Shown here in pieces: positions 3,336 to 55,246 of a DNA stretch of 64,000 bases. Where the stretch lies: positions 33,228-97,227 of IMG/VR virus record IMGVR_UViG_3300045450_000131. One strand, 5' to 3'. The position numbers and the translations under genes were made by a program. Every line of letters begins with the position of its first letter. The stretch's first letter is position 1. The notes under the pieces are model-generated. The model saw nothing but the letters and a program-made list of their open reading frames with translations, had not been told where the DNA came from and ran no database searches. This DNA is from a virus (lineage: Duplodnaviria > Heunggongvirae > Uroviricota > Caudoviricetes).

Positions 3336-3413
3336 TGGTGCGCAAGGAGGGATTCGAACCCACACTGTTCGCGTTCTAAGCGCGTTGTCTCCTACCAATT
3401 GCACTACTTGCGC
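3336..3413 (-). tRNA. atypical tRNA (anticodon TAG by loop CTTAGAA; D stem not resolvable)
   Basis: acceptor GCGCAAG/CTTGCGC, T-loop GGTTCGAATCC, CCA; short variable arm despite Leu-type anticodon. Confidence 0.4.
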
Positions 3414-5905: not shown

Positions 5906-6053
5906 AAATTTATCTTAGCCGGCGCCAAAGCACTTTTTAGCTGTATAATCATGCGCTTTACAAAGCCACTCTGGTTCATCCCAAGGGAATGACATCAATG
6001 GATGGATAATTGCATTGTGAATGAATTTCCAAAAATAAAACTTTGCATTACGT

Positions 6054-6293
6054 TCAGGATATTCCATATGTGCCTTTATATTCTACTCTATAGAGGTCTT
6101 CGTGGTGTTGATATGAAACATTGCCGTTATCCCATAACATCACAATGACATCTTCCTTTTCCTTTTGGAGGTAAGGACTAGTTTCACCCCTTTTTACGAG
6201 GTGTGTTATATGACCTGGAGTGCCAATATAACTTATCAGCTTGTCACCAACTTTAAGTTGATCAAATGGAACTTCACTAAGTTTCATACACAC
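6054..6293 (-). CDS. hypothetical protein
   Basis: 79-aa ORF between tRNAs. Confidence 0.35.
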   Translation of the reverse strand: MCMKLSEVPFDQLKVGDKLISYIGTPGHITHLVKRGETSPYLQKEKEDVIVMLWDNGNVSYQHHEDLYRVEYKGTYGIS

Positions 6294-6304
6294 CTTTTAT
6301 AAAT

Positions 6305-6383
6305 TGGTCTCCCATGTTTGATTCGAACAAACGTTATTCCTCATCCCAAATGAGGTGCCATAACCAGACTAGGCGAATGAGAG
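6305..6383 (-). tRNA. tRNA-Pro (TGG), second copy
   Basis: C1-G72 acceptor CTCTCAT/ATGGGAG, anticodon stem CCTCA/TGAGG with loop TTTGGGA, T-loop GTTTGTTCGAATCAAAC, CCA. Confidence 0.55.
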
Positions 6384-6387
6384 TAAT

Positions 6388-6463
6388 GTGGCGCTCCAGC
6401 ACTGAATCGAACAGTGATTCACGGGTTACAAAGCCGTAGTAATAGCCGTTATACTACAAGAGC
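6388..6463 (-). tRNA. tRNA-Thr (TGT), second copy
   Basis: acceptor GCTCTTG/CTGGAGC, anticodon loop TTTGTAA, T-loop CACTGTTCGATTCAGTG, CCA. Confidence 0.5.
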
Positions 6464-6591: not shown

Positions 6592-6668
6592 TGGTACCGC
6601 TCGTCGGACTCGAACCGACAGAATCTACTTTTTGAGAGTAGCATGTATACCAATTCCATCAGAGCGGC
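6592..6668 (-). tRNA. class-I tRNA with anticodon CAA (Leu-type anticodon, short variable arm)
   Basis: acceptor GCCGCTC/GAGCGGT, anticodon stem CTACT/AGTAG with loop CTCAAAA, 5-nt variable loop, T-loop GTCGGTTCGAGTCCGAC, CCA. Confidence 0.5.
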
Positions 6669-6703: not shown

Positions 6704-6781
6704 TGGTAACCCCTCTCAGATTCGAACTGAGAAACAACAGTGTTTAAAACTGTTTGCGATTACCAATTAGCATAAGGGGAC
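6704..6781 (-). tRNA. class-I tRNA with anticodon TAA (Leu-type anticodon, short variable arm)
   Basis: anticodon stem ACAGT/ACTGT with loop TTTAAAC; T-loop CTCAGTTCGAATCTGAG; 3' AGGGGTT-A-CCA. Confidence 0.5.
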
Positions 6782-7357: not shown

Positions 7358-7430
7358 TGGTGCCGACGGATGGAGTTGAACCACCATTTCTCTTGAGTTC
7401 AAGAGCGTTCTAACGTCGAGCTACGTCGAC
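7358..7430 (-). ncRNA. tRNA-like gene with aberrant anticodon arm (CTCTTGAACTCAAGAG hairpin)
   Basis: acceptor GTCGACG/CGTCGGC, T-loop GGTGGTTCAACTCCATC, CCA encoded; anticodon arm replaced by 6-bp/4-nt hairpin. Confidence 0.35.
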
Positions 7431-7577: not shown

Positions 7578-7654
7578 TGGTGCGGGTGGCGAGACTCGAA
7601 CTCGCAGATTACGGTGTTTAAGACCGTTGCCTATACCAATTCGGCTACACCCGC
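7578..7654 (-). tRNA. class-I tRNA with anticodon TAA (second copy)
   Basis: acceptor GCGGGTG/CACCCGC, D arm GCCGAATTGGTATAGGC, anticodon stem ACGGT/ACCGT with loop CTTAAAC, T-loop GCGAGTTCGAGTCTCGC, CCA. Confidence 0.55.
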
Positions 7655-14154: not shown

Positions 14155-14700
14155 TTAGTTTCCTTTGATAATATTAATGAGGTTGTTACCGAGTTTCTGC
14201 AAGTTTTTAAACTTAATTTTGAACGAGGTGGATTCAATACCACCAAACATACTTGCATTTGCATGCAATTCGGCTAGAGCGGTTAGGAGCAGGGCGGGGG
14301 CCAAGTCCATGTGCTTATAGCTGTCTGCCTCCGACGGCTTCATGATGTGCATATCCATATCATGCAAGATATACTTTCCAATCATGTCATCTCCACCATA
14401 AGCTGCCCAGATTGCAGCCGAAATACGAGCATGGTCTGGGAAATGCTGCTTACCATTTTCATCACGTGAAATGCAAAATGGTTTGCCGCAGTCATGGTAG
14501 ATATGGTACTGTTCCATCACTTCTGGAGATGGACACAGAGGCAGCAAAAAGTTTAAATCAAACCAGGTTGGAAGTCTCCATTCTAGTTTGCGTTCACCAA
14601 TTAAGTCCTTGTAGTGCAGGGAAACACTCTCACCGTGCTCAAGGATCGTTTGACTTTGCGTCTGATTACATTCAGACATCTTCTGTCGCAGCTCATTCAA
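14155..14700 (-). CDS. HD-domain phosphohydrolase
   Basis: motifs H...HD (YHIYHDCGK), HFPDH, later D; 181 aa. Confidence 0.55.
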   Translation of the reverse strand: MNELRQKMSECNQTQSQTILEHGESVSLHYKDLIGERKLEWRLPTWFDLNFLLPLCPSPEVMEQYHIYHDCGKPFCISRDENGKQHFPDHARISAAIWAAYGGDDMIGKYILHDMDMHIMKPSEADSYKHMDLAPALLLTALAELHANASMFGGIESTSFKIKFKNLQKLGNNLINIIKGN

Positions 14701-14754
14701 TTTAACCTATTTCATAATTTCCCTTTCGTAACCGCTATTTGCGATCTAATGCTA

Positions 14755-15402
14755 TTATAATTCGTTTGGTGTAAGATGGCTAAAGTGTTCCATTTGATAC
14801 TTCTTTAGCCACTCATATGCATTTACGGCTTCTTGTTCCCACCTTGGAGTATGATAGTCGTGAGTTTCTTTATTCCAATACTTTGTTTCTTCACCTGAAA
14901 ACGGCTTTACTTTATATGTCCGGAGTGCCTCAATCACTTCTAAGATGCTCTTCCCCTCCCTAAAGTAACCACCAATTTTACTTGCTTCGTGCTTACCAAG
15001 CCCTTTTATGGTATGAACACCGGCAAATTGCTCAGCATAGCACTTAATACATGAGGCAGCAACGCATGTGCAATCACCCCCGTGCACGTCATCTTCCAGT
15101 GCAGGAATGATATATGATAACTGGCGTTCAACTTCCTTATCTAGACCACATTTGCCATCCTCATTCTCGTCTGCATAATAGTACTTCGTATCTAATCTTT
15201 TAGTTAGTAATTCAAGTAATTCTTCAGTGGTTCTAGGTTTAATTTTTTCATTATACCAATCGTGATGTGTAATATCAAAATATGCTTCTGACATTAGCTC
15301 TTCCATTTGATTGATTTTGACCTTATAATAAAGTTCTTTCTTCTCAATATCAGTTAAAAGAATTTTACTTGCGAGTGGGTTTTCTGTATAAATGATCTTC
15401 AT
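14755..15402 (-). CDS. hypothetical protein (Cys-rich segment GGDCTCVAASCIKC)
   Basis: 215-aa ORF. Confidence 0.45.
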   Translation of the reverse strand: MKIIYTENPLASKILLTDIEKKELYYKVKINQMEELMSEAYFDITHHDWYNEKIKPRTTEELLELLTKRLDTKYYYADENEDGKCGLDKEVERQLSYIIPALEDDVHGGDCTCVAASCIKCYAEQFAGVHTIKGLGKHEASKIGGYFREGKSILEVIEALRTYKVKPFSGEETKYWNKETHDYHTPRWEQEAVNAYEWLKKYQMEHFSHLTPNEL

Positions 15403-18865: not shown

Positions 18866-18940
18866 TGGAGCCTCTGACAGGAATCGAACCCGTATTCACG
18901 CTTTAGAAGAGCGTTGTCTTCTCCATTAGACGACAGAGGC
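18866..18940 (-). tRNA. tRNA-Glu (TTC)
   Basis: acceptor GCCTCTG/CAGAGGC, anticodon stem ACGCT/AGCGT with loop CTTCTAA, T-loop ACGGGTTCGATTCCTGT, CCA. Confidence 0.65.
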
Positions 18941-18947
18941 AGATAGG

Positions 18948-19023
18948 TGGTGCGCCCGGAGGGATTCAAACCCCCGACAAACCGGGTAGAAGCCGGTGAC
19001 TCTATTCGCTGAGCTACGGACGC
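18948..19023 (-). tRNA. tRNA-Arg (TCT)
   Basis: acceptor GCGTCCG/CGGGCGC, D arm GCTCAGCGAATAGAGT, anticodon stem ACCGG/CCGGT with loop CTTCTAC, T-loop GGGGGTTTGAATCCCTC, CCA. Confidence 0.6.
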
Positions 19024-19043: not shown

Positions 19044-19118
19044 TGGCGACTTCACCGGGGCTCGAACCCGGAACCTTAGGATTTAGAGTCCTCTGCTCTA
19101 CCATTGAGCTATAAAGTC
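19044..19118 (-). tRNA. putative amber-suppressor tRNA (anticodon CTA)
   Basis: acceptor GACTTTA/TGAAGTC, D arm GCTCAATGGTAGAGC, anticodon stem GAGGA/TCCTA with loop CTCTAAA (C32 U33 CUA A37), T-loop CCGGGTTCGAGCCCCGG, CCA. Confidence 0.5.
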
Positions 19119-19124
19119 TGAATT

Positions 19125-19198
19125 TGGTGGCCTATGCGAGAATCAAACTCGCTTCCTGAAATTTAGAGTTTCGTACTTTATCATTAAGCTAATAGGCC
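19125..19198 (-). tRNA. second putative suppressor tRNA (anticodon CTA), A19/U56 variant
   Basis: acceptor GGCCTAT/ATAGGCC, anticodon stem CGAAA/TTTCA with loop CTCTAAA, T arm GCGAGTTTGATTCTCGC, CCA. Confidence 0.4.
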
Positions 19199-20235: not shown

Positions 20236-20695
20236 AAACAGCTTTCTAAAGCAGCATTGGGTCCTAAAAGGACCCAATGCTGAATGATTAAACATCTAGA
20301 ATTTTCTTAACAAGGATCTTACTCCTTGGCTAGACCTTAGGCGGCCATTAGCATTTGTGAGTCATTTGCATTTCTCGTTTTTGCTATATTAACGTCATTC
20401 GCCTGACGAGCGCCTTACTAAGTTACTATTCTGTCGGTCGATAGCCAGATCACCCCCATCAAAAGAACTCTTAGGTTACGTAGTTCCGAGTTTTTCAGAT
20501 TAACTATCTGATACTCTGTCAAAGTCTACTGCAGCTTTTACAACTTAACTAGTTGGTGCTTACCTAAAACCATTTTACTTGCTTGAATGTGCCGCGAATA
20601 ATTCAAACTTTCAAATACAGAATTCTTTTGGTGGAGGTGGCGGGAGTTGAACCCGCGTGTCGCCAGTATTTCTCAAAGAAGGTTTACGCTGTTTT
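20236..20695 (-). ncRNA. ssrA: circularly permuted (two-piece) tmRNA, ssrA-like
   Basis: order on minus strand: TATAAT promoter (20701-20712); acceptor piece ending GACACGCGGGTTCAACTCCCGCCACCTCCACCA (3' end 20629), near-identical to the E. coli tmRNA 3' end; ~170-nt spacer; coding piece starting GGGGGTGATCTGGCTATCGACC at 20457, whose first 7 nt pair with CACCTCC including G3:U70; tag frame GCA AAT GAC TCA CAA ATG CTA ATG GCC GCC TAA = ANDSQMLMAA (compare E. coli ANDENYALAA); terminal hairpin GCATTGGGTCC-TTTTA-GGACCCAATGC at 20254-20280. Confidence 0.6.
20337..20369 (-). other. tmRNA tag reading frame (ANDSQMLMAA-stop)
   Basis: resume codon GCA at 20369-20367, stop TAA at 20339-20337; an upstream in-frame GCA at 20384 would give a longer tag. 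Confidence 0.5.
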
Positions 20696-20700
20696 TAATT

Positions 20701-20715
20701 TATATGGTAATTATA
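20701..20715 (-). promoter_or_regulatory. -10 element (GTTATAATT) upstream of tmRNA acceptor piece
   Basis: same aattataacatcatttt motif as at 2946. Confidence 0.45.
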
Positions 20716-20718
20716 ACA

Positions 20719-21546
20719 TCATTTTGGGCTGTGGCCCCAAATTTTTAAACTTAAAAGCTTACGGGTTGGATTGCCATCTTTGTCCTTCATCGGGCCAGCA
20801 GCACCCAACATTCGAGAGACGAAGCTGACTTGTTTCCCGGCCCACTTCCACATTTGCGGTGTCCAGTCTTCAACTTTAGTCTTCTTCATCTTAATAATCC
20901 AGTTTGCACTTTCTACACCAGACGAGATGCCCAATTTTGCTGCTTCTTTTCGTTGCAACCCGGGGTGATCCTTCGGGTCTTTTTTGCCCTTGGCAGTTTG
21001 CTCCTCTTTGAACTTCTCAAGTGAGTCAGCACTCATATTAATTAGCTCTTTCCACCTCTTATATAATTCCTTCTGCTTTTCATCTAGAGTTTCTTTGGCT
21101 TCTAGAATTACTTCTAGTTCTTCATCAATCTTACCCTTAATAAATGCATTGACTCTACCCATTGCCCACGCACTTGAATTGGTGCCAGGAGGGTGGCTCT
21201 TTCTCCATGCCGCCAATCCCTTGTTATACACCTGCTTTAACTTAGATAATGACTTACCACTCTCTTCTGCTTTCTTCTTAAGAGTGTCATCAAGCTTCTT
21301 ATCTTCGGTTAGCTCTTCAGTTTCTAATTCTACTTCACCTAAGTTAGAGATGAAGTCCTTAAATGAAAGGTTCTCAGCTAAGCCGGCTCTACGTTTAACG
21401 ATGCCATTAACATAAGCCCAGAAACGCGGGCTCTTTTTCTTGAACTTTTTCTTAGCTTCATCCTCTGCTTCAGCCCACCATTTTTCAACGTGGTCGACGG
21501 ATTTGCCGGTTTTTTCGGCGTAGGACTTTACAACATTATTAGGCAT
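20719..21546 (-). CDS. hypothetical Lys/Glu-rich protein (start MPNNVV with GGAG RBS)
   Basis: 275 aa, coiled-coil-like charged repeats. Confidence 0.45.
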   Translation of the reverse strand: MPNNVVKSYAEKTGKSVDHVEKWWAEAEDEAKKKFKKKSPRFWAYVNGIVKRRAGLAENLSFKDFISNLGEVELETEELTEDKKLDDTLKKKAEESGKSLSKLKQVYNKGLAAWRKSHPPGTNSSAWAMGRVNAFIKGKIDEELEVILEAKETLDEKQKELYKRWKELINMSADSLEKFKEEQTAKGKKDPKDHPGLQRKEAAKLGISSGVESANWIIKMKKTKVEDWTPQMWKWAGKQVSFVSRMLGAAGPMKDKDGNPTRKLLSLKIWGHSPK

Positions 21547-21811: not shown

Positions 21812-23317
21812 TTAACTAATATAGGCAGCCCGTTCACGGACTTCAGCGAGAGTAGTCCGATTGTAGAACTTGCCGTGATCATAAATGTCAACCATGAAAT
21901 CAACATACTTAGGGTCAACTTCTTTATCAACTCGAATAGTTTCAAAATGGCCATTTTCAGTATTAATTGCAAGAGTAAGAACACCTTCCTTAGACTTCTT
22001 GCCTTGGTCAGTCACTGGGTTCTTAGCGATGCCGTCCCAGAAGAAGGTATTATCGTCGCGTCGGCGCAGAACTGCAGATGCCTTTTGAGCGAACTTGTAA
22101 GTATCGCGGTTGCGCTTCTGAAGTAGAGCTCCGCCAGAACCAAAGATAACATTGTCTGCCGCAAACCCACGAGTCATGATGTGGCCAAGCACGGTACGAA
22201 TCGCGAGGTGATCAACACCGTCACCTTGAATGATACCGACATTATTGATCTTCTTGAAGCCCTTTGCATTGAGAGTAAAGCCGAAGGTCTTAGCTTGCAC
22301 ATCTAGAATGTAGCTGATGATTTCAACCATGTCACCGCTGTCTGGCCGGAAGACGACCTTGGTCTTCGACTCAATAATAACGTCCTTCAGTTCAACACAT
22401 AGAAGTCTAGTTGCGCGATAGACGTCATACCCATCAATGACGATAGACACAATACCTCCGGGCTTGCCAAGGTTTTGGATAACATGCTTGAGGTATGCAA
22501 GTTCGCTGGCTTCATCACCCTTGCCGAAGGAGCATTGCACGCTGTGTTCGGTGGCGGGAACGGAGAATGCAGCCATATTACAATCATAGAAGTGATTTGC
22601 ATACTGCACACCTTCGATGGTATCAGAGCCCATGAATGAAACCAAGTGAGCTGCACCACCAATTTCGGCTTGTTCATGGCAGGTAACACCACGTGCGCCA
22701 AAGTCGTGCAGAGCAAAGGGGATCAGACTCTTGTCGGCGCCGGTGCGTTCATAGAAGTTAGTAATAACTTGCTTGATTTGATAGTCATCAGTTGCGATGG
22801 TAGTCGGATACCATTCACCACGGAGCAGGAGAGTTTCAAAGTAGGAGCACAGCCAGAAGATGTTTTCAGCGACAAAGGTGTCGACGCACATGATGGTGGT
22901 AATTGCATTACCAGACTTGACAGGAGTACCTTCAGGCACACCACGGATAATGAGAGGCATGAAGCCATCATACTTTTTCAAAATATGCTCCCACACATCT
23001 CGTGCGAAGGGTTCACCGTGCGCTTGCGCAAATTGTGCAGCTTCCTCGATGTCTTCACGATTAATAGGTTGAGAGAGGTACTTCTGCAAGACGGCTTGAC
23101 GGCCAAACGGGATCATGATGTCTTGACCGTTGGTGCGGGCTTCAATGTAGGAAGCCATGCCACAGACGTCCTTTGGATACGCAAAGGCGTGGGAAAGCTT
23201 GTAGGAATCCACCGCTAGGATTAGATTAAAGCGCTTTGGCTTTTGTGCAATATATTCAACGCGGGTGTTTGCAGAATGTTGCAGGAAGGGGAGCGCCGGA
23301 ACATTTACTTGGGTCAT
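21812..23317 (-). CDS. nadV: nicotinamide phosphoribosyltransferase (NAMPT/NadV-like)
   Basis: ~500 aa; overall resembles NAMPT/NadV as I recall the family (blocks GFAADNVIFGSGGALLQK and DSGD); start set at MTQVNV with AAGGAG RBS. Confidence 0.65.
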   Translation of the reverse strand: MTQVNVPALPFLQHSANTRVEYIAQKPKRFNLILAVDSYKLSHAFAYPKDVCGMASYIEARTNGQDIMIPFGRQAVLQKYLSQPINREDIEEAAQFAQAHGEPFARDVWEHILKKYDGFMPLIIRGVPEGTPVKSGNAITTIMCVDTFVAENIFWLCSYFETLLLRGEWYPTTIATDDYQIKQVITNFYERTGADKSLIPFALHDFGARGVTCHEQAEIGGAAHLVSFMGSDTIEGVQYANHFYDCNMAAFSVPATEHSVQCSFGKGDEASELAYLKHVIQNLGKPGGIVSIVIDGYDVYRATRLLCVELKDVIIESKTKVVFRPDSGDMVEIISYILDVQAKTFGFTLNAKGFKKINNVGIIQGDGVDHLAIRTVLGHIMTRGFAADNVIFGSGGALLQKRNRDTYKFAQKASAVLRRRDDNTFFWDGIAKNPVTDQGKKSKEGVLTLAINTENGHFETIRVDKEVDPKYVDFMVDIYDHGKFYNRTTLAEVRERAAYIS

Positions 23318-23399
23318 GATAAACTCCTTATCATAGTTGATGAAAGCAAACATCTATTGTTTGCTATATTTTATTTAGGTAAATTATAACCTATTTTGC

Positions 23400-23762: not shown

Positions 23763-25025
23763 TCATTCCTCGATTTTTCGAGGTGCAAATTGCTTTACAT
23801 CCTTGTGCGTTTTGCCATACGACGCGGCAATGACATTAATGTCAAGCTCATCCTGCAGCAATCCAAGAAGATGCTTCGTATCAAAGAGTTGTTGCCCTCC
23901 AGAATACATAGTATTAACTGAAACTTTAGTACCAAGCTGATCCATGCAAGTCACAAACAGGTTTGCACCTGTAACTTTGACATTAAGTAATTCAGACAAA
24001 ATACCGCTAGAACGGGAAATATCAGACTTCAGGTATGCATCCAACACGTGCAAATTCAGCGGCGCATATCTAATATTGCCTTGCCACGCATTTTCAACAT
24101 TGGTGTGATCATACAGTTCCTTGTCTGTAATCCACTCACCTTCATTTTCAAGGTGACCGGCACCATGTCGAGTGACATATGAGCGCGTCATATAGATTGC
24201 TTCAAGCTCCTTAATATTAAGCTCGTGAGCAGCTAGCATTGCTGATGGCAAGCCAGTGATTGAATGAGTAACATGAGGAAAATGCCCCAGTTCCATGTCT
24301 AATCCTAATCCTTGTGCGCCTTCAAAGATAACACCATTCTCTACATGTGGCGGGATAAGCGTGAAGTTATTCACTGCAAGAACCATCATCTTGTGATAGA
24401 TACTTTCCGCATCTAAGCCTAGCAAAAAGTTAAATCGCTCAGTCCATGGGTCAATTTCTTCAAGCAAGTTTAAACCTTCTGCTTCGAGGTAATGATTAAC
24501 GCGAGCAGGAAGCCATTTTTCCTGAATTTCTCTAATCATATTAATGACGTGGCGCTTAGAGAAGATTGTCCCACTAAACAAATCAGAAATAAAGATTGGA
24601 TATTGCTCACTGCGCGCGATTGTTTCATTAATTCCAAGACCGCACGAACCATGCTGGCTTCCATTTCGATGCCTACGGCTCTCAACAATCATGTTCATTG
24701 CAACATCAAAGATCGTACTTACGCGACATTGTGCGTGGACGTGTATTTTAGTAACATCCAGCAGCGCTTCGCGCTCCTTCTTCACCATGTCCAAATTGAT
24801 GATGAAGTTCTTAGATAGGTAAGTTTTGCAACCGTTGAGAGTACCCGCGCCAAACGTATTGAAAACGTGAGTCTCATTATTTCTACACACTGTATGACCA
24901 GCTTGTGCGCCACCGTTATGCCGAACTATGAGTGGCGTTCCTTCAAATTGATTAGAGAAATAGTCGACGGCAAGACCTTTCCCCTCGTCGCCATAATTAG
25001 CACCAATGATTGCAACGTTCTTCAT
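23763..25025 (-). CDS. adenylosuccinate synthetase-like protein (PurA family, divergent)
   Basis: N-terminal P-loop-like GANYGDEGKGL, NGGAQAGHT, FEGAQG, TRSYVTRHGAGH blocks that resemble E. coli PurA blocks as recalled from memory. Confidence 0.6.
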   Translation of the reverse strand: MKNVAIIGANYGDEGKGLAVDYFSNQFEGTPLIVRHNGGAQAGHTVCRNNETHVFNTFGAGTLNGCKTYLSKNFIINLDMVKKEREALLDVTKIHVHAQCRVSTIFDVAMNMIVESRRHRNGSQHGSCGLGINETIARSEQYPIFISDLFSGTIFSKRHVINMIREIQEKWLPARVNHYLEAEGLNLLEEIDPWTERFNFLLGLDAESIYHKMMVLAVNNFTLIPPHVENGVIFEGAQGLGLDMELGHFPHVTHSITGLPSAMLAAHELNIKELEAIYMTRSYVTRHGAGHLENEGEWITDKELYDHTNVENAWQGNIRYAPLNLHVLDAYLKSDISRSSGILSELLNVKVTGANLFVTCMDQLGTKVSVNTMYSGGQQLFDTKHLLGLLQDELDINVIAASYGKTHKDVKQFAPRKIEE

Positions 25026-27831: not shown

Positions 27832-28935
27832 TTAGTCCTTGATCATCCCAATCATAGTATCCAGGATATCAAGATGGTCCTCGAACCACTTCTCGCTATT
27901 TGCTCGAGCTTCAGAAATTGGCAGCCAAAATGCCTTTGCAGTTTCTACAACCTCAGCACCACCGGTTTCATGGAGTGGTGCATTCTGCCCCTTCACCTTA
28001 GGCAGTGGCTTGGTGTCGTCAAGGCGAATCAAAAAGGCGGTAGTGATAGTGCGACCACGCAAGCTTCGGTTCGGATCATCGAAGATTTCCTTCGCCTTGA
28101 TGGAACCTTGCATGACTTGCTTAGGAACTTTAATGCCAGTCTCTTCTACCAATTCTCGCACGACGGCATCTTGGAGCCGCTCCTTCTGGTCGAGGAAGCC
28201 ACCAGGCAGAGCCCATAGTCCCTTACCAGGTAGTGCGCCTCGCTCGACCACCAGTACGTGACCAGATTGAATAACGACACCATCAACCGTGTTAAAGGTG
28301 GGAGCGTAGGGCGCTGCCTGCCATGCCCTCTTATACTTTTGCATGAAGTCATACTCAGCCTTTAGGGTATTAAAGACATCAGTCTTCACAAAGTCCTGCA
28401 AGAACAAGAAGGTGGAGAATGGCACGTCATACCAGCATGCCTTTTCAAGGGGCTTCTCGAAGAGGCGCTGCCGAAGTTCTGTCGCATTAAGGCCGTGACC
28501 ACTATGGTCAATATCGAGCAGGAAGGGAGGAATGAGCCTAGACTTGTATTGAGGGAAGGCGCTCAAATACCAAGTAGATTCATCACGATCAGAGCCGACG
28601 ATCTGAATATCCACTTGCTCATCTTTAAAACGCTTTGAAACGATTTCACTCACCTTTTCTTGCACAGATTGAATCCACTTCGAGTCGTTGTAGATTTGAT
28701 CACGCAGCGGCACCGTGACTACGTTACGAGACGTGCCCATGTTGGGAAATGACGCGATAATCATTTCAGCGCGTTCTTTAAAGGTAAATGGGTTCTTGAT
28801 GGTGCGGGCTTGGTTTGCAGAACCAACTAGCACGATGGTGAGGTCACTCTCAGCATGTGCATGGCGAAGGACATGTTGATGACCGAGGTGGAAGGGCTGG
28901 AATCGCCCAATGTATACTGAAACTTTCTTTGCCAT
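27832..28935 (-). CDS. natV: bifunctional NMN adenylyltransferase / Nudix ADP-ribose pyrophosphatase (NadM/NatV-like)
   Basis: N-terminal GRFQPFHLGH nucleotidyltransferase motif; C-terminal Nudix box GGFLDQKERLQDAVVRELVEETGI. Confidence 0.65.
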   Translation of the reverse strand: MAKKVSVYIGRFQPFHLGHQHVLRHAHAESDLTIVLVGSANQARTIKNPFTFKERAEMIIASFPNMGTSRNVVTVPLRDQIYNDSKWIQSVQEKVSEIVSKRFKDEQVDIQIVGSDRDESTWYLSAFPQYKSRLIPPFLLDIDHSGHGLNATELRQRLFEKPLEKACWYDVPFSTFLFLQDFVKTDVFNTLKAEYDFMQKYKRAWQAAPYAPTFNTVDGVVIQSGHVLVVERGALPGKGLWALPGGFLDQKERLQDAVVRELVEETGIKVPKQVMQGSIKAKEIFDDPNRSLRGRTITTAFLIRLDDTKPLPKVKGQNAPLHETGGAEVVETAKAFWLPISEARANSEKWFEDHLDILDTMIGMIKD

Positions 28936-30428: not shown

Positions 30429-31568
30429 TTACTTCTTTTTGGCTTCGCGCTTAATGACCGCAAGTGCCGCTGGGTGAACCGCCCACTTCACGCGTTCAAT
30501 ATCAAGAGGATCAACATCACGCCACTTAGGGTGACCATTAGCTTGCAAGTTATCTACGTTCTTTACAATGCACGATACCAGGTTCGCAATTTCCGTCTGA
30601 TACTGATTCTTGTAGGCGAAGGTTGCCAGCACGTTATCTACCTTGTAGGTATTAGTTGCGCCGGCCTGCCATGGGTAAGTTCCAGACGGAATGGTCGCTT
30701 TAGTGAAGATGTTAGCACTATCAATTTTAGGATTCTGCAGCGAAACTAGCTTGAGGCCCGTTGCACCAGAAAGAACCTGGAGAGGTTGGCCGCCGACAAT
30801 GAAGGCCACATCAGCACCACCAGTTTGCACCGCCTTAATGCTTTCTGCCTGTGATAGATTACCAGCCGATGTCCAGTTAATATTAGACAGCTGTTTTAGC
30901 TGCTGTACGGTTGCCCAAGTGCCTGAACCTTCTTGACCTTCAGCAACTCGCTTGCCTTCCAAATCGGCGATAGTCCTAATAGGTGAGCCGCTTGATGTAA
31001 CGGCGTGGATTTCTTCAGAGTAGAATGGGAAGATAGCGACAACTCGAGACATCATCTTCGGGTCTTGCTGCTTTAAGTATTGCAGAATGTTGGCTTGAAC
31101 TACACCAAATTGAGTGTTTGGATCAGTGTAGATTTTATTTGCGTTATCCACTGACCCGGCGGATCGAACGTTACGTAGTGGGTAATCTTGCGTAGAGCAG
31201 GACTTGACAATGTCGTTCACGATTGGGTAGTAGGAACCAGATGGTTCGCCAGATGCGATGCCTGCGCCAGGCAACTTGCCTTGAGCAGTTTGTACTGCTT
31301 GCCGGGGCTCTTCAACTGCAGCTTGGGCTGGTGGGACATATTGAGGCTGTTGCACAACTGGCGCGGCTTGAACTACTGGTGGCTCAGTGCGAACTACTGG
31401 AGCTTGAGCTGGTTGTGCAACTACGGTTGCCACCTGAGTTGGTTGCTGAACTTGGGATAGCTGAGGTTGAGACTCTGGCTGACCCATGAATTTATACACA
31501 CCGAATCCGGCGGCACCAACAATGCCGGCAACGATCAGCGCCTTAGGAACGGTTTTCAGTTTTGCCAT
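30429..31568 (-). CDS. membrane-anchored TAXI-family (TRAP-type) solute-binding protein with Pro/Gln-rich linker
   Basis: N-terminal TM anchor MAKLKTVPKALIVAGIVGAAGFGV; PQ-rich linker; core GIASGEPSGSYYPIVNDI and KRVAEGQEGSGTWAT resemble TAXI motifs as recalled. Confidence 0.5.
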   Translation of the reverse strand: MAKLKTVPKALIVAGIVGAAGFGVYKFMGQPESQPQLSQVQQPTQVATVVAQPAQAPVVRTEPPVVQAAPVVQQPQYVPPAQAAVEEPRQAVQTAQGKLPGAGIASGEPSGSYYPIVNDIVKSCSTQDYPLRNVRSAGSVDNANKIYTDPNTQFGVVQANILQYLKQQDPKMMSRVVAIFPFYSEEIHAVTSSGSPIRTIADLEGKRVAEGQEGSGTWATVQQLKQLSNINWTSAGNLSQAESIKAVQTGGADVAFIVGGQPLQVLSGATGLKLVSLQNPKIDSANIFTKATIPSGTYPWQAGATNTYKVDNVLATFAYKNQYQTEIANLVSCIVKNVDNLQANGHPKWRDVDPLDIERVKWAVHPAALAVIKREAKKK

Positions 31569-33136: not shown

Positions 33137-34066
33137 TTAGTGGTGGCGCCTCCACCATGCTGCAATGTTGTGCCGATACAGCATTCCATCTTCCAATACC
33201 TGCAAAATAGAACGACTAGACCTGTCAAGGAAGAAGTCCTCATGTGCCTTTTCATACTCGCAGTAACCATTAGCTAGGTGCTTACCCGCTTTTTCTTGAT
33301 TTAGGATGCAGTAATTAAGCGCCAATACCACACCTTCCTTGACTTCTTCGAAGTGTTCGGCTTCAACTCCACCACCCAAGCTGCTGTGAATCTTAATCCA
33401 CAGGTAATCTCTACCCATCTTTTCAACTAGTTGAGGCCGCTTTAGCCGAAGCCACCGATCAATCTCGGTGTATTCAATATCACCAAGGTGTTCAGATGCC
33501 ATGTGAAAGCCCATGCCTTCAAGCAGATCAGAATCATTGTAGTGATTAGTGCTCTTAAACCCGTTGCTCAAGGCCTTAATGTGGTTTTTAAAATTAACAT
33601 CTTCTACATCTGTCACTTCATCAAGGTCAATGTGTAAATGCTGAGACATAGAGTACAGAAAGTTTTGTGCCAGGCAACGGTGAGTAGTGTGCTCATTTCC
33701 TTCTGGCCCCATGAATTCGTCGGCGGCGGTGGCAAAGACATATGATGCAATTTTGCATGAACGATCTCGAGTTAGCTTCTTGTCACTTTCACTGATGAAG
33801 AATGAACGGGCGTTTGCAACCTTGCCTGACAGAGTGGCCATATAACCACCATAATGCCCATTCCATGAGATATAACGTGCAATCCACTTCAAAAGTGCTA
33901 AGTCATTGGTGCACTTATCAAGTGACTGCATGATATAGCTTCGAATGTGATTGTCATTCTGCTCACCATTATGAATGATAGTTTTGACAATTTTGTGTGA
34001 GATTGCTTCCTTGACCAGGCTGGTAATAATGGCGTCTTCAGCGGGAGTTGGGTCGGTATAGATCAT
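33137..34066 (-). CDS. heme-oxygenase-like fold / iron-containing redox enzyme family protein (tentative)
   Basis: all-alpha 309-aa protein with spaced His/Glu (EH...H, EHxxH) patterns; sits next to the ABC importer genes. Confidence 0.3.
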   Translation of the reverse strand: MIYTDPTPAEDAIITSLVKEAISHKIVKTIIHNGEQNDNHIRSYIMQSLDKCTNDLALLKWIARYISWNGHYGGYMATLSGKVANARSFFISESDKKLTRDRSCKIASYVFATAADEFMGPEGNEHTTHRCLAQNFLYSMSQHLHIDLDEVTDVEDVNFKNHIKALSNGFKSTNHYNDSDLLEGMGFHMASEHLGDIEYTEIDRWLRLKRPQLVEKMGRDYLWIKIHSSLGGGVEAEHFEEVKEGVVLALNYCILNQEKAGKHLANGYCEYEKAHEDFFLDRSSRSILQVLEDGMLYRHNIAAWWRRHH

Positions 34067-34845
34067 GCAGTGGGCTTCAGGTAGTTAAGGAGGGTATTTT
34101 CCAACGAAATGTCATTAGAAGGTCGAACTGCCTTGAGGGCTTGTGGAGCGTAGTTGCGATTCACATCGTGAACAATACGACCAGGCTTTGCACCCATCAC
34201 GATGATGCGGTCGCCAAGAGCAATCGCTTCACTGACGTCATGGGTAATTAAAATGATAGTGCAAGGATTAGCATTATACAACTGAATCAGCAGTTCGTGC
34301 ATATCTTTACGTGTAAATGCATCTAAAGCGCCGAATGGCTCATCCATCAACAAAATCTTAGGACCGAGGGCTAGTGCCCGGGCTAGTGCAACGCGTTGAT
34401 TTTGGCCACCAGAAAGTTGGGATGGGTATAAGTTCTTCTTGTCTGCCAAGCCAACCGCATGCAGTAGTCTATCGACTTGCGTTTGCGCATTTGCCTTTGG
34501 CACCTGCTTCTTCCAATATCCAAGTGTAAAGGGGAACATTACATTCTGCTCGACTGTCAAATCTGGCCGATTGGAGTATTGCTGGAATACCGTCACGGCA
34601 TCATTGAGTTGGTCATGGCATTCAACGCCATCTACTACTACCGTGCCCTTCGTCGGAGTAGTTACTCCTTGAGGTCGGACTCCACCCATCATACGAAGTA
34701 GAGTTGACTTGCCACACCCAGATTGCCCCATCAAAATATTAATTGAAGGGCCAGCAATAGTGAGAGAAAGGTTTTCAATGACGACGTTAGCAACATTGTT
34801 GTGGACATAAGTCTGGTTAATTTCTTTGAGTTCAATGATTGACAT
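34063..34845 (-). CDS. ABC transporter ATP-binding protein (NitT/TauT family)
   Basis: Walker A GQSGCGKST, signature LSGGQNQR, Walker B ILLMDEPFGALD, H-loop ITHD. Confidence 0.75.
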   Translation of the reverse strand: MSIIELKEINQTYVHNNVANVVIENLSLTIAGPSINILMGQSGCGKSTLLRMMGGVRPQGVTTPTKGTVVVDGVECHDQLNDAVTVFQQYSNRPDLTVEQNVMFPFTLGYWKKQVPKANAQTQVDRLLHAVGLADKKNLYPSQLSGGQNQRVALARALALGPKILLMDEPFGALDAFTRKDMHELLIQLYNANPCTIILITHDVSEAIALGDRIIVMGAKPGRIVHDVNRNYAPQALKAVRPSNDISLENTLLNYLKPTA

Positions 34846-34855
34846 GATTATTTCC

Positions 34856-35635
34856 TTACTTGCCTGCCCAGAAGTAGTACTTGTTCTTGATTAGCTTCAA
34901 GACAATATCGGTAATGAATGCAATCAAGATGATGACGATAATACCGGCAAATACTTGATCCATTGCAGAGAATCGACGAGCGCTCTGAATCAAGCTCCCC
35001 AATCCCTGAGTTGCATTTACGTATTCTGCAACGGTGATATATCCCCATTGGATAGACACCGCCATAATCCCAGCCTCTGCAATTCGAGGCATTGCCATTG
35101 GCAAGACTGCTCGGGTAATGCACTCATAGTAGGAAGCGCCTAGATCGCGAGCGCTTTCCCAGTAAATGTAAGGGACTGCTTTAATTGCATCACGAACCAT
35201 CGGAATCATGAAGATGACCGCGCCCAAGAAGAGGAATGTAACTTTCATTTCTTCACCAATCCCCAACCAAATCACTAGGATTGGAAGGATTGCAACGATC
35301 GGTGCCGACCGGAATGGATCAAGAAGTGGAGATAGAGCTGCGTTAACTGGAGGTGCCGCGCCCATTAGAACTCCAACTGGAATTCCAATCAGCAAAACGA
35401 AGAGGGTAGCGATGGCAACTCGACTTACAGACGCAATCGTTGCACCCAGGAGTTGGCTTTGGCCGTTATCCCACGCCAAGTATGAGAATGCATTGAGCAC
35501 GGAAAGTGGTGACGGCAGCTTATTCTGGCCAACTAGGGTGGACACAAAGGTCCAAACAATTAGCAATAGAATTAGAGCACCTGCACCAAGGAGCTTCTTC
35601 GTGGTAGGGGAGAGTGGTTTATGTGGATTGAACAT
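34856..35635 (-). CDS. ABC transporter permease (binding-protein-dependent inner membrane component)
   Basis: 6 TM pattern; ATG at 35635 (the ORF track used GTG at 35647). Confidence 0.65.
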   Translation of the reverse strand: MFNPHKPLSPTTKKLLGAGALILLLIVWTFVSTLVGQNKLPSPLSVLNAFSYLAWDNGQSQLLGATIASVSRVAIATLFVLLIGIPVGVLMGAAPPVNAALSPLLDPFRSAPIVAILPILVIWLGIGEEMKVTFLFLGAVIFMIPMVRDAIKAVPYIYWESARDLGASYYECITRAVLPMAMPRIAEAGIMAVSIQWGYITVAEYVNATQGLGSLIQSARRFSAMDQVFAGIIVIILIAFITDIVLKLIKNKYYFWAGK

Positions 35636-35637
35636 TT

Positions 35638-35850
35638 TTAGTTGCACGCCTTGTGAACGCCATTTTCCATAGTGGGGATTGTGTTGCTGCTTTTATGACC
35701 AGTAATTGTAACTACATATTCCTTGCCTTCATGACACTTTGTTTGCATTCTAACTGGATACTCAGGCTGCTTCTGAATGTGTAAAGAATAAAATAACCCA
35801 CCAAAAAACAAGACACTAACGGAGAGTCCAGTTATAAGAAAAGATGACAT
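35638..35850 (-). CDS. small membrane protein
   Basis: 70 aa, N-terminal TM; AAAGG RBS; TATAAT at 35873-35881. Confidence 0.4.
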   Translation of the reverse strand: MSSFLITGLSVSVLFFGGLFYSLHIQKQPEYPVRMQTKCHEGKEYVVTITGHKSSNTIPTMENGVHKACN

Positions 35851-35886: not shown

Positions 35887-36408
35887 CTAGTTAACTTTCG
35901 TGTTAGTTAAATTAAGCAAGTTCATCATAAATTGTGGTGAGCCATTCTTAAACTGAACACCGCCAGTCCCGATATGCTTCCCCTTGACATCATAGTCAAT
36001 TTCTACAAAATCATTGTCACCCACAAGACCTTTCTTCCTCATGTTATTTGCCTTAGCAATGGTGCTCATTTCAATTTTTCGATAGCACTCCAGGCCTTTC
36101 AGGGTGACCCTGCACATTGTTGTAATGATATTTGAATAGAGCTGTATGACTAACTCATCTACACCTTTCTCAACTAGCTTATCACATTGCTCTTTAAGTT
36201 GTTTACGTGTAGCATGAGCATTGTGAAAGAGTGTAGTAGCACTAATAATACCAGATGCCCACGCCATCTCGAGCTCTCTAAACCTCTTTTGGTGATTATT
36301 AATGTGCTTGATGACGATGCGGTTTTTCTTATCTGTTTTATTCAGTGTATCTGCCAGGTAGATTGCCGCTTTATAATTACCGAAAGTAAACTTATCTAGT
36401 TGTGACAT
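35887..36408 (-). CDS. hypothetical protein
   Basis: 173-aa ORF. Confidence 0.45.
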   Translation of the reverse strand: MSQLDKFTFGNYKAAIYLADTLNKTDKKNRIVIKHINNHQKRFRELEMAWASGIISATTLFHNAHATRKQLKEQCDKLVEKGVDELVIQLYSNIITTMCRVTLKGLECYRKIEMSTIAKANNMRKKGLVGDNDFVEIDYDVKGKHIGTGGVQFKNGSPQFMMNLLNLTNTKVN

Positions 36409-36468: not shown

Positions 36469-38133
36469 TTACTGACCAAAGATACCGACTCGAGTTGTCC
36501 GATTTTCAGCCTTGCAGCTTTCAATATCCAGGCCGTCTGCGCTTGGGTTAGCTTCATTACAGATCGGCTTTGCTGAGCCATTACCAGTAACCTTGAAGCG
36601 ACTTACCGGGAAGTCCCATTGCTTAACGAGGTAGTCAACTACGACTGCGGCTCGCTTTTGGCTCAGTGGCTTATTCACGCCGTCTGAACCGCTGCTGTCA
36701 GTGTTACCGGAGATTTCGATGTATGCCTTACCATTATTCTCGATAAAGGGCACCATCTGATCATCGATTTGCTTCTTGGCTCGCTGAGAAAGTTCGAAGC
36801 TACCAGTATCGAATCGGACTGCAACTGGCTTAGTGATAGCTGCCTTGTTTTGCGATGCGCTCTGCAGACCTTGCGAGGTGAACGTTTCAGTCGGTGCAGC
36901 CGCCGCTTGAGCAGCTTGCGAGTTGTTAGCCAAAAGGTTCTTAATGAAGGAGTAGTCGATGCTATCTTGTGGGTTAATCACAGGAGACTTCGGATTAGCA
37001 AGAGCGCCTGCTGCACGATATACACCATCAAATTGCTTGTAAACTCGTTCGTAGTGGTTGGTACCACCTGCCATGCCGAGAATACGTGCATTGTCTTCCA
37101 ATCCGGTCATGTCAACGTTGTTGAAGAGGGACTTGACGAATGGCTTACCCTGGTCTTTGGCAAGCAGTTCGAACATCTTCTCGTTCTTGATGATGACGTC
37201 TGTTGCTTGATCGAGGTCTTTTTCAGCAATAAGCGTTGCATCCATCCACCCACTAACTAGGGATTGAATTGCCTTCTTGCCTGCATCATTGTTGATGACG
37301 CGTTGATCACAGATCATAACGTCGTAAATGAGGTTCGTTGCAGTCTTAGTGCTGTACACAACGTGGCTGTTTTGCTTTGCAGCGAGGGAGAGGTCTGGGT
37401 CCCATAGAACCGCCGCATCTACCTTGCCACTTTCATATGCTGCTCGAACGCCGGCCGTGCCTTCATCGGCATTGATGAAGACCATCTTGATGCTTTGCTT
37501 CTTCTTAGCAGAGAGCGAGCTGTTTTCGATCGCGTCGATCAGCAGACCGTGAGAAGGAGTGTATTGCAGTAGTGCAACCGACTTGCCAGCAAGGTCCTCG
37601 ACGGAGCGAATGCCTTGGTCCTTAGCGATAATTGCATCACCACCACGGGTATTTGCAATCAGCATTACGACCTTGCCGTCATGGCCTGAGTTACGAAGGT
37701 TCGGCTGGATTTGAGACCAGAAGTCGGAGGTGCGAACAACGCAGTGGCCAGAACCGCTTTCCCAAATCGTAGTTAGATCGGGGAAGTCATCTTGCATGTT
37801 GTACTTGACATTGACACCAAGCTTGTCATTGATGGAGCCCGAAGCAGTGTCGAAGCCGCCACCGTTTGCAATCAGGCCGGGTGCATAACCGTGGAAGGAC
37901 AAGAAGCTAATTTTCAGTGGGTTGCTCGCGGAACCAATATCGCCCTTACCAGTCTTTGCAGGTACTGCGGCAGTCTTGGTAGAAGTCGGCGCCGCGGGCG
38001 TAGAGCTGTAATTCTCAGTTTTGCTTTCGCCACCGACCTTGTTGAGAACGCCAGAGAGGTGAACTGCGTATCCAATACCACCAACTACTGCGCCGATAAT
38101 GACCATCTTCGGCAGAGTCTTAAGTTTTGCCAT
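36469..38133 (-). CDS. membrane-anchored NMT1/THI5-type (NitT/TauT) substrate-binding protein fused to C-terminal OmpA-like peptidoglycan-binding domain
   Basis: N-terminal anchor MAKLKTLPKMVIIGAVVGG (paralogous to 30429-31568); central SsuA/ThiY-like SBP region; C-terminal ...NTDSSGSDGVNKPLSQKRAAVVVDYLV... OmpA/MotB motif. Confidence 0.55.
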   Translation of the reverse strand: MAKLKTLPKMVIIGAVVGGIGYAVHLSGVLNKVGGESKTENYSSTPAAPTSTKTAAVPAKTGKGDIGSASNPLKISFLSFHGYAPGLIANGGGFDTASGSINDKLGVNVKYNMQDDFPDLTTIWESGSGHCVVRTSDFWSQIQPNLRNSGHDGKVVMLIANTRGGDAIIAKDQGIRSVEDLAGKSVALLQYTPSHGLLIDAIENSSLSAKKKQSIKMVFINADEGTAGVRAAYESGKVDAAVLWDPDLSLAAKQNSHVVYSTKTATNLIYDVMICDQRVINNDAGKKAIQSLVSGWMDATLIAEKDLDQATDVIIKNEKMFELLAKDQGKPFVKSLFNNVDMTGLEDNARILGMAGGTNHYERVYKQFDGVYRAAGALANPKSPVINPQDSIDYSFIKNLLANNSQAAQAAAAPTETFTSQGLQSASQNKAAITKPVAVRFDTGSFELSQRAKKQIDDQMVPFIENNGKAYIEISGNTDSSGSDGVNKPLSQKRAAVVVDYLVKQWDFPVSRFKVTGNGSAKPICNEANPSADGLDIESCKAENRTTRVGIFGQ

Positions 38134-54673: not shown

Positions 54674-55246
54674 TTACATTTTGCCCATATCTATGAGGTG
54701 AAGTTGTAACAAGACTACATACGAGTAGGCAATGGCGTGAGACTTCTTGAAGGAGAAGCCACTGTCATCTTTCGCATATAGAATTTTTCGTGCTGATAAC
54801 TTGTCCTTCTTATACAAGCCGATGAAGTTCTTCTTACCAGGTCGAATTAGCGCCATCATGTCAGCTAATTCTAGAATAGATTTCGGCTTTAATTCACTGA
54901 GCAAGTCACCATGTTTTGCAAGCTGAAAGAGCTTAGCTTGCACTGACGGCACCTGTAACAAAGTCCAGTCAGGCTCCTTCTTAATTAGCATGTCAATCTC
55001 TGCACGGGTCTTGAATTGAGAGTACACGTGCAAGTGCAGAAAGTCAACCTTTAAGTACCCTAAATCTTCTGCTTCATCATATGGAATTGCCGCAAGCTTA
55101 GTAATTGGGTCTACAGCCATTGACTGCGGATACACACCGCATGGGTGAGGTGTGATCTTATTGTCCTTCACCACCGCAGCGCGACACCAATTTTTGAATA
55201 AATCGGTCGGGTTGAATGAAGGAGTGCAGTCTATATCGACGTCCAT
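54674..55246 (-). CDS. hypothetical protein
   Basis: 190-aa ORF. Confidence 0.45.
   Translation of the reverse strand: MDVDIDCTPSFNPTDLFKNWCRAAVVKDNKITPHPCGVYPQSMAVDPITKLAAIPYDEAEDLGYLKVDFLHLHVYSQFKTRAEIDMLIKKEPDWTLLQVPSVQAKLFQLAKHGDLLSELKPKSILELADMMALIRPGKKNFIGLYKKDKLSARKILYAKDDSGFSFKKSHAIAYSYVVLLQLHLIDMGKM

Follow-up and report, generated by a model that had tools for sequence, protein, structure and literature searches.

The window analysed here is a stretch of 64,000 nt from a Caudoviricetes genome (positions 33,228 to 97,227 of IMG/VR record IMGVR_UViG_3300045450_000131). It contains two adjacent tRNA genes with a CUA anticodon, both encoded on the minus strand and identified by ARAGORN at 19044-19118 and 19125-19198. 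In the order of transcription, the gene at 19125..19198 (supA) comes first and that at 19044..19118 (supB) second; they are separated by a spacer of 6 nt (19119..19124). The anticodons appear on the plus strand as TAG, at 19164-19166 in supA and 19084-19086 in supB. Each gene specifies a 7-bp acceptor stem, a 5-bp T stem and an encoded CCA (ARAGORN structure), and the anticodon loop is the same 7 nt in both: C32-U33-C34-U35-A36-A37-A38 (CU-CUA-AA). The Rfam tRNA model RF00005, which has a gathering score of 29 bits, matches both genes over positions 1-71/71, at 58.9 bits for supA (E=3.5e-10) and 67.9 bits for supB (E=1e-12). A first-pass annotation of the sequence had described two adjacent CUA tRNAs with canonical 7-nt loops and good T arms and acceptor stems. 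ARAGORN and Rfam agree with it at the same coordinates; the anticodon and its 7-nt loop stay in place, and scores far above the threshold give no sign of pseudogenes.

The two genes differ from each other. Body identity between them is just 68%. supA has the acceptor strand GGCCUAU, discriminator A73 and a G1-C72 pair, and its A-U-rich anticodon stem contains a single G-C pair. Its D-loop (AAUGAUA) and T-loop (UUUGAUU) carry A19/U56 instead of G19/C56; the compensated change that had been reported for one of the two tRNAs is thus seen in supA. supB has the acceptor strand GACUUUA and discriminator G73, and its stem starts with G1-C72, A2-U71 and C3-G70. A single-sequence MFE fold of supB did not reproduce the cloverleaf and was set aside in favour of the covariance model. 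The same two genes are present in a separate Logan assembly of run SRR35356220 (L005), and they are therefore not an assembly artefact. Searches of IMG/VR for the exact sequence of either tRNA, and of JGI metagenomes for the 26-mer of the anticodon arm, gave no match.

ARAGORN labels any tRNA with a CUA anticodon as tRNA-Pyl. The hallmarks of tRNA-Pyl are a 6-bp anticodon stem, a one-base link between the acceptor and D stems, a very small D loop, and pylS and pylBCD genes nearby. In supA and supB the link is 2 nt, the D loop 7 nt and the anticodon stem 4-5 bp long, and this structure rules the label out; the annotated and scanned ORFs of the window yielded no domain of pyrrolysine biosynthesis or of PylRS. 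supA and supB are, with very little doubt, genuine tRNA genes. By sequence they can be characterised as elongator-type amber-suppressor tRNAs, which would be expected to decode UAG.

The pair lies in a large cluster of RNA genes. The ARAGORN annotation of the window comprises 24 tRNA genes and a single tmRNA, and every one of these genes is encoded on the minus strand. Two tRNA-Arg(UCU) genes (18866..19023, minus strand) follow 20 nt downstream of supB, and these also differ in their discriminators, A73 and U73. supA, supB and the two tRNA-Arg genes are probably co-transcribed. Tandem duplicates of sense tRNAs are frequent in the window and include Arg, Thr, Pro and Leu genes. The tmRNA (20246..20722, minus strand) is about 1 kb upstream of the pair; it is of the permuted (two-piece) type and encodes the tag ANDSQMLMAA, followed by a TAA stop. 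An HD-domain protein of family phrog_14850 is encoded at 14155..14679 on the minus strand. Its AlphaFold model, built with an alignment, has a fold like that of the C-terminal, tRNA-binding part of class-II tRNA nucleotidyltransferases. Other phages, too, encode the protein close to CUA tRNAs; it goes with tRNA clusters, and this does not imply specificity for suppressors.

The coding content of the window is strongly strand-biased, with 96 of the 109 ORFs on the minus strand. Its products include NAMPT, an NMNAT-Nudix fusion, adenylosuccinate synthetase, RNA ligase, DNA ligase, a clamp loader, an ABC importer and a tail-repeat protein of 1064 aa whose gene extends past the end of the window. 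An 8-kb query compared with GenBank phages by megablast gave no close DNA match. The clamp loader is closest to that of RsoM2USA (43.5% identity), followed by those of Xoo-sp13 and XacN1 (~39%), and NAMPT is closest to the RsoM2USA/XacN1 group (42%). These protein identities suggest that the phage is a distant relative of the jumbo phages RsoM2USA and XacN1. When the MCPs of XacN1 and RsoM2USA were used as queries, no match was assigned to the window phage or to its syntenic relative described below; two MCP-profile scans of IMG/VR, with at least 80 loci listed, matched two other pair-bearing contigs, and the contig of the closest relative was not among the loci listed.

The syntenic relative is IMG/VR contig 3300045996_002337 (L025; 349,660 bp). 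It shares with the window NAMPT (65% identity), the NMNAT-Nudix fusion (69%), adenylosuccinate synthetase (39%) and a DUF5824 protein. Its RNA genes are arranged in the order permuted tmRNA, one ORF, A73 CUA tRNA, 6-nt spacer, G73 CUA tRNA. Identity between the tRNAs of the window and of this contig is 0.68 for the A73 members and 0.71 for the G73 members; the cross-class values (0.61-0.64) are slightly lower. A 104-kb ENA contig from a close relative (L171) has a permuted tmRNA and then a tandem CUA pair ~0.5 kb further on, a more distant arrangement is found at L026, with a one-piece tmRNA 2.2 kb from the CUA pair, and the relative L172 has one CUA tRNA only. The linkage of tmRNA and pair may reflect general clustering of RNA genes. 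We consider it highly likely that the suppressor pair is a conserved module.

The window uses the standard code and avoids TAG. Its coding density is 0.83-0.85 in code 11, 0.85 with TAG as sense and 0.86 in the control with TGA as sense; reading TAG as sense thus adds no more coverage than the control does. No credible in-frame TAG is found in the minus-strand genes of the 64-kb window and ~5 kb of flanking sequence. Apparent internal TAGs on the plus strand are antisense CTA codons. A junction at 14755/14700, with TAGs at 14700-14757, was considered as a case of TAG read-through and rejected; it consists of two genes, the first of which ends in TAA-TAG. The 76 independent gene calls supplied with the Logan contigs end in TAA (55), TGA (19) and TAG (2). 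The standard code, long intact ORFs and TAA stops of the first-pass annotation are borne out by these counts and by the lack of in-frame TAG on the minus strand. No release-factor (RF2) or aminoacyl-tRNA synthetase domain was found among the annotated ORFs of the window.

TAG stops, at 2-3% of genes, are rare, but the statistical significance of this is modest: p=0.015 against an expectation of 10%, and p=2e-4 if the expectation is set at 16%, the fraction that TAG makes up of out-of-frame stop triplets. Our own ORF tiling gives TAG as the stop of 3 of 109 ORFs, and of 1 of 69 minus-strand ORFs of at least 100 aa. Such greedy tiling is unreliable at high GC; it counted 20 TAG stops in the XacN1 repeat, where the complete genome is reported to have 18. 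Preference was therefore given to supplied gene calls and to loci of coherent strand. The sole window ORF of at least 100 aa that ends in TAG lies at 35887..36408 on the minus strand, and its read-through would run for 8 further codons (QVIIHLYK) up to a TAA. The gain for the two real TAG-terminated ORFs of the window is 8 and 4 codons. Across the lineage, TAG terminates approximately 4 of 137 genes; separate counts are 0/35 in L172 and 3/32 in L171.

The standard code leaves intact the structural genes that were read in this phage, in its syntenic relative and on two other contigs bearing A73+G73 pairs. The tail-repeat gene of the window (L003) is uninterrupted over its 1064 aa. A further locus of the syntenic relative (L033) contains four consecutive intact ORFs of the tail-fibre class (1027, 1063, 1102 and 666 aa); the RNR and helicase genes there are likewise intact. 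Contig 3300048854_000081, which has an A73+G73 pair (L168) and a capsid module (L079), encodes an intact MCP of 467 aa with intact neighbours of 310-711 aa. Contig 3300012943_000028 (pair L011, capsid L188) has a standard-code density of 0.94 and ORFs of up to 986 aa. The capsid modules of these two contigs have 84-94% standard-code density. The positive control of the code test, a family of C73+G73 pairs (L125, L142, L151, L161), gains 0.13-0.29 in density with TAG as sense, whereas none of the A+G loci favours TAG as sense. The window appears to be in the state described for phages as TAG-depleted, suppressor-acquired and still standard-code, and not in that of a code-15 genome.

Tandem CUA pairs are found in other phages, and their members usually differ. 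A total of 30 tandem CUA pairs, 23 of them with unique sequences, came from two structured pattern scans of IMG/VR. The discriminators differ in 22 of the 23 unique pairs, and exactly one member has G73 in 21. The single same-discriminator pair (1/23) compares with 36% expected from pooled base frequencies (p=4e-4, for pairs that are not phylogenetically independent). The combination A73+G73 is found in 14 of the 23, in the order A-then-G in 11 of those 14; its enrichment (p=0.007) is likewise computed from counts that are not phylogenetically independent. An A73 member followed by a G73 member with another acceptor stem, as in the window, is found in XacN1, L025 and 9 other unique pairs. Eleven of the 15 contigs with A+G pairs are longer than 200 kb. 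The exceptions to the different-discriminator rule are L014 and L171, both A73+A73. One further candidate, L012, was a false pattern match, with a tmRNA present but no tRNAs.

The contrast between pair members is also seen in XacN1. Its sup1 has the acceptor GGCCCGU with A73 and its sup2 GCUUUCG with G73; the bodies are identical at 58/58 positions, the acceptor stems at only 2/14, and the discriminators differ. The bodies of some tandem pairs are 88-100% identical. In body similarity the A73 and G73 classes are not distinct (A-A 0.685, G-G 0.687, A-G 0.679). The single CUA tRNAs of five cultured phages, Xoo-sp13, RAS14, Phosso, CBB and GAP32, all have A73; A73 therefore looks like the common form and G73 like an added partner. 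On sequence comparison, the pair appears to be usually heterogeneous, and this is what is new here beyond the XacN1 precedent. Such heterogeneity suggests two charging identities.

The CUA anticodon differs only at position 36 from anticodons of Lys (CUU, A73), Gln (CUG, G73) and Glu (CUC, G73) tRNAs. supB has 82-85% identity over ~60 nt with the tRNA-Trp(CCA) genes of actinophages. It shares with them G73 and a near-identical anticodon arm, variable loop and T arm, and its loop is CUCUAAA where that of the phage tRNA-Trp is CUCCAAA (C35 to U). The G2-C71 and G3-C70 pairs that E. coli GlnRS uses are missing from supB, and in many bacteria there is no GlnRS at all. Comparison of supB with E. 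coli tRNAs by blastn of E. coli genomes gave no significant match. supA has no significant match among phages, and its isotype could not be assigned from overall similarity; a nearest-neighbour isotype comparison with 88 phage tRNAs gave ambiguous assignments.

Rules for the charging of amber suppressors have been described in E. coli. LysRS accepts amber suppressors that have A73, U35 (with C34 allowed) and an anticodon stem rich in A-U pairs, and tRNA-Trp(CUA) loses recognition by TrpRS and is charged by GlnRS (PMC2965240). Acceptance by LysRS and by GlnRS trade off against each other (PMC1483225). By analogy with these E. coli rules, which may not be those of the host, supA is predicted to be Lys-type because of its A73, G1-C72, C34-U35 and the one G-C pair in its anticodon stem; supB is predicted to be Gln/Trp-type because of its G73 and tRNA-Trp-like body.

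A role for the pair can be proposed from these features. Host synthetases would charge supA and supB with different amino acids, and the two tRNAs would compete with release factor 1 at UAG. During infection, UAG would be partly read as sense, as two different amino acids. The phage itself would tolerate this read-through, having no in-frame TAG and having almost eliminated TAG as a terminator; its remaining TAG stops would give short, harmless extensions. As TAG is nearly purged from the phage, the cost of read-through would fall mainly on host mRNAs. Action on host amber-terminated genes, one of the targets put forward in the first-pass annotation, is plausible. The suppressors would also buffer the large genome of the phage against amber mutations. 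Our confidence in the explanation as a whole, a functional and conserved pair with dual charging which partly reads UAG as sense in a TAG-avoiding phage, is evenly balanced; the expression of the tRNAs, the amino acids they carry and the benefit are presumed. The role itself, host-directed read-through together with amber buffering, is held more tentatively, and its benefit is conjectural. A bolder version is unlikely, and is offered as speculation. The A73+G73 tandem would be a selected dual-identity decoder that makes UAG an ambiguous sense codon (Lys plus Gln/Trp), and the neighbouring tmRNA would help to turn host proteins that end at UAG into read-through or non-stop products, which are tagged and degraded. 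If true, this would amount to translational host shutoff with recycling of amino acids, to which the TAG-purged phage would be immune.

Other explanations would have the suppressors act on the phage's own genes. One is that structural or lysis genes beyond the sequence read here use TAG as sense (code 15), the suppressors switching the code late in infection. In recoded phages, the early regions of which can be read in the standard code, CUA tRNAs are established in this function (bioRxiv 10.1101/2021.08.26.457843). TAG is almost absent as a stop in the window, the genes read are those of 64 kb plus flanks of a contig that is probably at least 162 kb long, and tandem CUA pairs do occur in clearly recoded contigs, those of the C73+G73 family. 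Late-gene recoding is nevertheless improbable here. In-frame TAG is absent from all that was read of this genome, including a large tail gene; the tail-fibre-class ORFs of the relative (666-1102 aa) and the capsid modules of two other A73+G73 genomes are intact, and the A+G loci never favour TAG as sense, though the controls do. The MS/MS data on XacN1 virions fit standard-code predictions, with 7 of the 9 predicted structural proteins identified from such translations, and neither an RF2 nor a synthetase gene was seen in the window. The suppressors had also been viewed as a possible pre-adaptation toward late-gene recoding. That part fits a published model in which depletion of the stop codon is followed by acquisition of a suppressor and then by recoding of late genes (bioRxiv 10.1101/2021.08.26.457843); actual recoding of late genes is the part judged unlikely. 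Programmed read-through, in which the suppressors extend specific TAG-ended phage proteins into C-terminal isoforms, would account for the few TAG stops that are retained (2/76 here, 18/592 in XacN1), as a dedicated signal would look. Against it, the TAG-ended ORFs of the window would gain only a handful of codons, in-silico read-through of all 18 TAG stops of XacN1 gave no extension with database similarity (PMC5852040), and the need for two differently charged suppressors is left unexplained. The Pth2 gene that had been suggested as a target was not found: tblastn of the window with the XacN1 peptidyl-tRNA hydrolase gave a best E=3, the scanned ORFs contain no PTH2 Pfam match, and no ORF of 100-150 aa in the window ends in TAG. 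We consider programmed read-through quite improbable.

Simple dosage is a further possibility: the two genes would be redundant copies of one suppressor, and their differences neutral drift. Sense tRNAs are commonly duplicated in tandem in this window, the L014 and L171 pairs are A73+A73, and some pairs have bodies that are nearly or wholly identical. Drift would not be expected to confine all 13 differences between the XacN1 tRNAs to the acceptor stem and discriminator and leave the body unchanged; this is the opposite of drift. The deficit of same-discriminator pairs also argues against dosage, as do the divergent bodies and different apparent origins of supA and supB, and we consider it quite improbable. 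The tRNAs could also have no decoding role, as decaying relics, or as decoys or substrates in tRNA-targeting defence and counter-defence. A tRNA-repair context is suggested by the RNA ligase and by the HD protein, with its likeness to the tRNA-binding part of CCA-adding enzymes, and the D-loop and T-loop of supA are unusual. The change in those loops is compensated, however, and the Rfam scores, cloverleaf, U33, A37 and encoded CCA are those of intact tRNAs. Dozens of phages have kept the CUA anticodon and the CUCUAAA loop, with stems that vary while pairing is preserved. A non-decoding role is highly improbable. The preferred reading remains partial decoding of UAG by two differently charged suppressors in a phage that avoids TAG.

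Phage amber suppressors are usually read as a sign of stop-codon recoding. The window is further evidence that jumbo phages of a whole group retain CUA tRNAs under the standard code, and it should be noted for annotation that code 15 is not to be assigned from a CUA tRNA alone. A pair that differs in acceptor stem and discriminator, often beside a phage tmRNA, provides a testable handle. Either the phage deliberately renders UAG ambiguous as a sense codon, or it needs both charging routes in order to work across hosts. Such genomes would be natural intermediates on the way to code 15, with the stop purged and the decoder acquired but the genes not yet recoded. Cultured representatives such as XacN1 exist for testing.

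Recoded phages (code 15; crAss-like, Lak and other gut phages) are known to carry CUA tRNAs in regions compatible with the standard code, with TAG depleted, and their suppressors are presumed to be charged by host synthetases (bioRxiv 10.1101/2021.08.26.457843). The window and the related or analogous A73+G73 genomes differ in that no recoding is seen in them. The E. coli suppressor supU (su7), a tRNA-Trp with its anticodon changed from CCA to CUA, resembles supB in the single change of C35 to U and in the retention of G73. It is a laboratory mutant of a host gene, whereas supB is a conserved natural phage gene. The acceptor stem of supB (G1-C72, A2-U71, C3-G70) also differs from that of E. 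coli tRNA-Trp, so that its charging cannot be assumed.

Single suppressors are found in several cultured jumbo phages. For RsoM2USA a single CUA suppressor has been reported, and for Atu_ph07 a single UCA suppressor. GAP32, CBB, RAS14 and Phosso have single CUA tRNAs annotated variously as Sup, Pyl, TERM or OTHER; that of Xoo-sp13 is unannotated. Like supA, the tRNAs of these five phages are class-I tRNAs with the CUCUAAA loop and A73, located in tRNA clusters of genomes with conventional CDS annotation. The tRNA of Xoo-sp13 also shares the GGCC acceptor start of supA, and GAP32 and CBB, like the window, have a tRNA-Arg(UCU) near the CUA tRNA. In contrast to the window, these are single genes, with no G73 partner within the 2-kb flanks examined.

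XacN1 is the closest parallel. It uses the standard code, with 18 TAG stops in 592 genes, and has two CUA suppressor tRNAs per terminal repeat (PMC5852040). In its record (AP018399), the tRNA-Sup genes are at 36047-36122 and 36130-36205, 7 nt apart, and we find an unannotated permuted tmRNA 1 kb from the pair. There is no synteny of flanking genes around the pair between the window and XacN1, and the XacN1 pair lies in a 66-kb terminal repeat and is hence present twice. The XacN1 tRNAs have identical, Lys-like bodies, unlike those of the window, where the bodies are divergent and supB is Trp-like. The likenesses are as follows: adjacent CUA tRNAs on the same strand, A73 (acceptor GGCC...) followed by G73, a spacer of 7 nt in XacN1 and 6 nt in the window, a large tRNA cluster, a permuted tmRNA ~1 kb off, ~3% TAG stops, and a related clamp loader. 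As the XacN1 pair has already been reported, adjacent amber suppressors in a standard-code phage are a known phenomenon. The pair in the window is a further case of the kind known from XacN1-like and Rak2-like jumbo phages.

A permuted (two-piece) tmRNA with the tag ANDSQMLMAA lies at window positions 20246-20722 on the minus strand; the suppressor pair, the tandem tRNAs with anticodon CUA, is roughly 1 kb away. Permuted tmRNAs are also present in the Xanthomonas jumbo phage XacN1 (37201-37621) and in two relatives of the window phage, L025 (985-1384) and L171 (3638-4045); in these three the distance between the CUA pair and the tmRNA is 0.5-1 kb. Neither the GenBank annotation of XacN1 nor the XacN1 paper lists its tmRNA. 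L026, another phage locus, has a one-piece tmRNA (6053-6407) located 2.2 kb from its CUA pair. In all four permuted tmRNAs examined (window, L025, XacN1 and L012, a locus lacking the pair), the tag ORF stops with TAA or TGA.

A 174-aa HD-domain protein (phrog_14850; 14155-14679, minus strand) is found repeatedly near CUA tRNAs in phage contigs which are otherwise unrelated. Homologues are present at L011, L013, L018, L026, L029, L171 and L172 and on the L025 contig, and there are 814 database homologues. The HD signature (H15, H62-D63, H83, D107 and H111) is invariant. The structure model of the window protein is of high confidence (pLDDT 96), and its best match is to the A-adding enzyme of Aquifex (3WFQ/3WFR; TM 0.59, probability 1.0), in the C-terminal part that binds tRNA; a weak sequence-profile hit (E=0.03) falls on this enzyme too. 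The protein may be a stand-alone enzyme acting on tRNA 3' ends.

Directly after the suppressor pair are two tRNA-Arg(UCU) genes (18866-18940 and 18948-19023, minus strand). They share an anticodon but have unrelated bodies, and their discriminators are U73 and A73; this mixed tandem echoes the heterogeneity of the neighbouring CUA pair. U73 is otherwise found in the window in tRNA-Gly genes. A further tRNA-like element (7361-7430, minus strand) scores 33.4 bits with Rfam, just over threshold, and is not called by ARAGORN. Its acceptor and T arms are good and CCA is present, but the anticodon arm is non-canonical; the element could be a tRNA that is unusual or has degenerated.

Bacterial tRNA-Leu is defined by a long variable arm. 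In the window, four minus-strand tRNAs (3336-3413, 6592-6668, 6704-6781 and 7578-7654) with the leucine anticodons UAG, CAA, UAA and UAA are only 77-78 nt long and have no such arm. In several the D stem is Leu-like, at 3 bp, and A73 is kept. Leu tRNAs of normal length are also present.

Each of two short minus-strand ORFs, of 183 aa (60171-60722) and 190 aa (54674-55246), has a match to bacterial DNA polymerase III alpha, in a different domain (PF07733 and the finger domain PF17657). The two ORFs are separated by 5 kb, which suggests that the polymerase gene is fragmented or split. ABC importer and OmpA-domain genes are located at 30429-31568, 34063-34845, 34856-35647 and 36469-38133 (minus strand). 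The importer looks complete, with an NMT1-like substrate-binding protein, ATPase and permease; the OmpA-domain protein is 554 aa. An NAD salvage pair, NAMPT (21812-23353) and NMNAT-Nudix (27832-28935), and adenylosuccinate synthetase (23763-25025) are also encoded. Just past the high end of the window, at 144-824 of the overlapping Logan contig L003, a glutaredoxin and an Acb1-family (anti-CBASS) gene come straight after the tail-repeat gene.

A distinct type of tandem CUA pair is found at six loci (L125, L142, L150, L151, L159 and L161) from IMG/VR sample 3300045988, on contigs of 80-140 kb. A 75-nt C73 tRNA is followed, after a 3-nt gap, by a 91-nt, Ser-like class-II G73 tRNA with a long variable arm. 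At four loci of these contigs TAG is clearly favoured as a sense codon. This type of pair suggests that recoded phages may likewise have two suppressors differing in identity.
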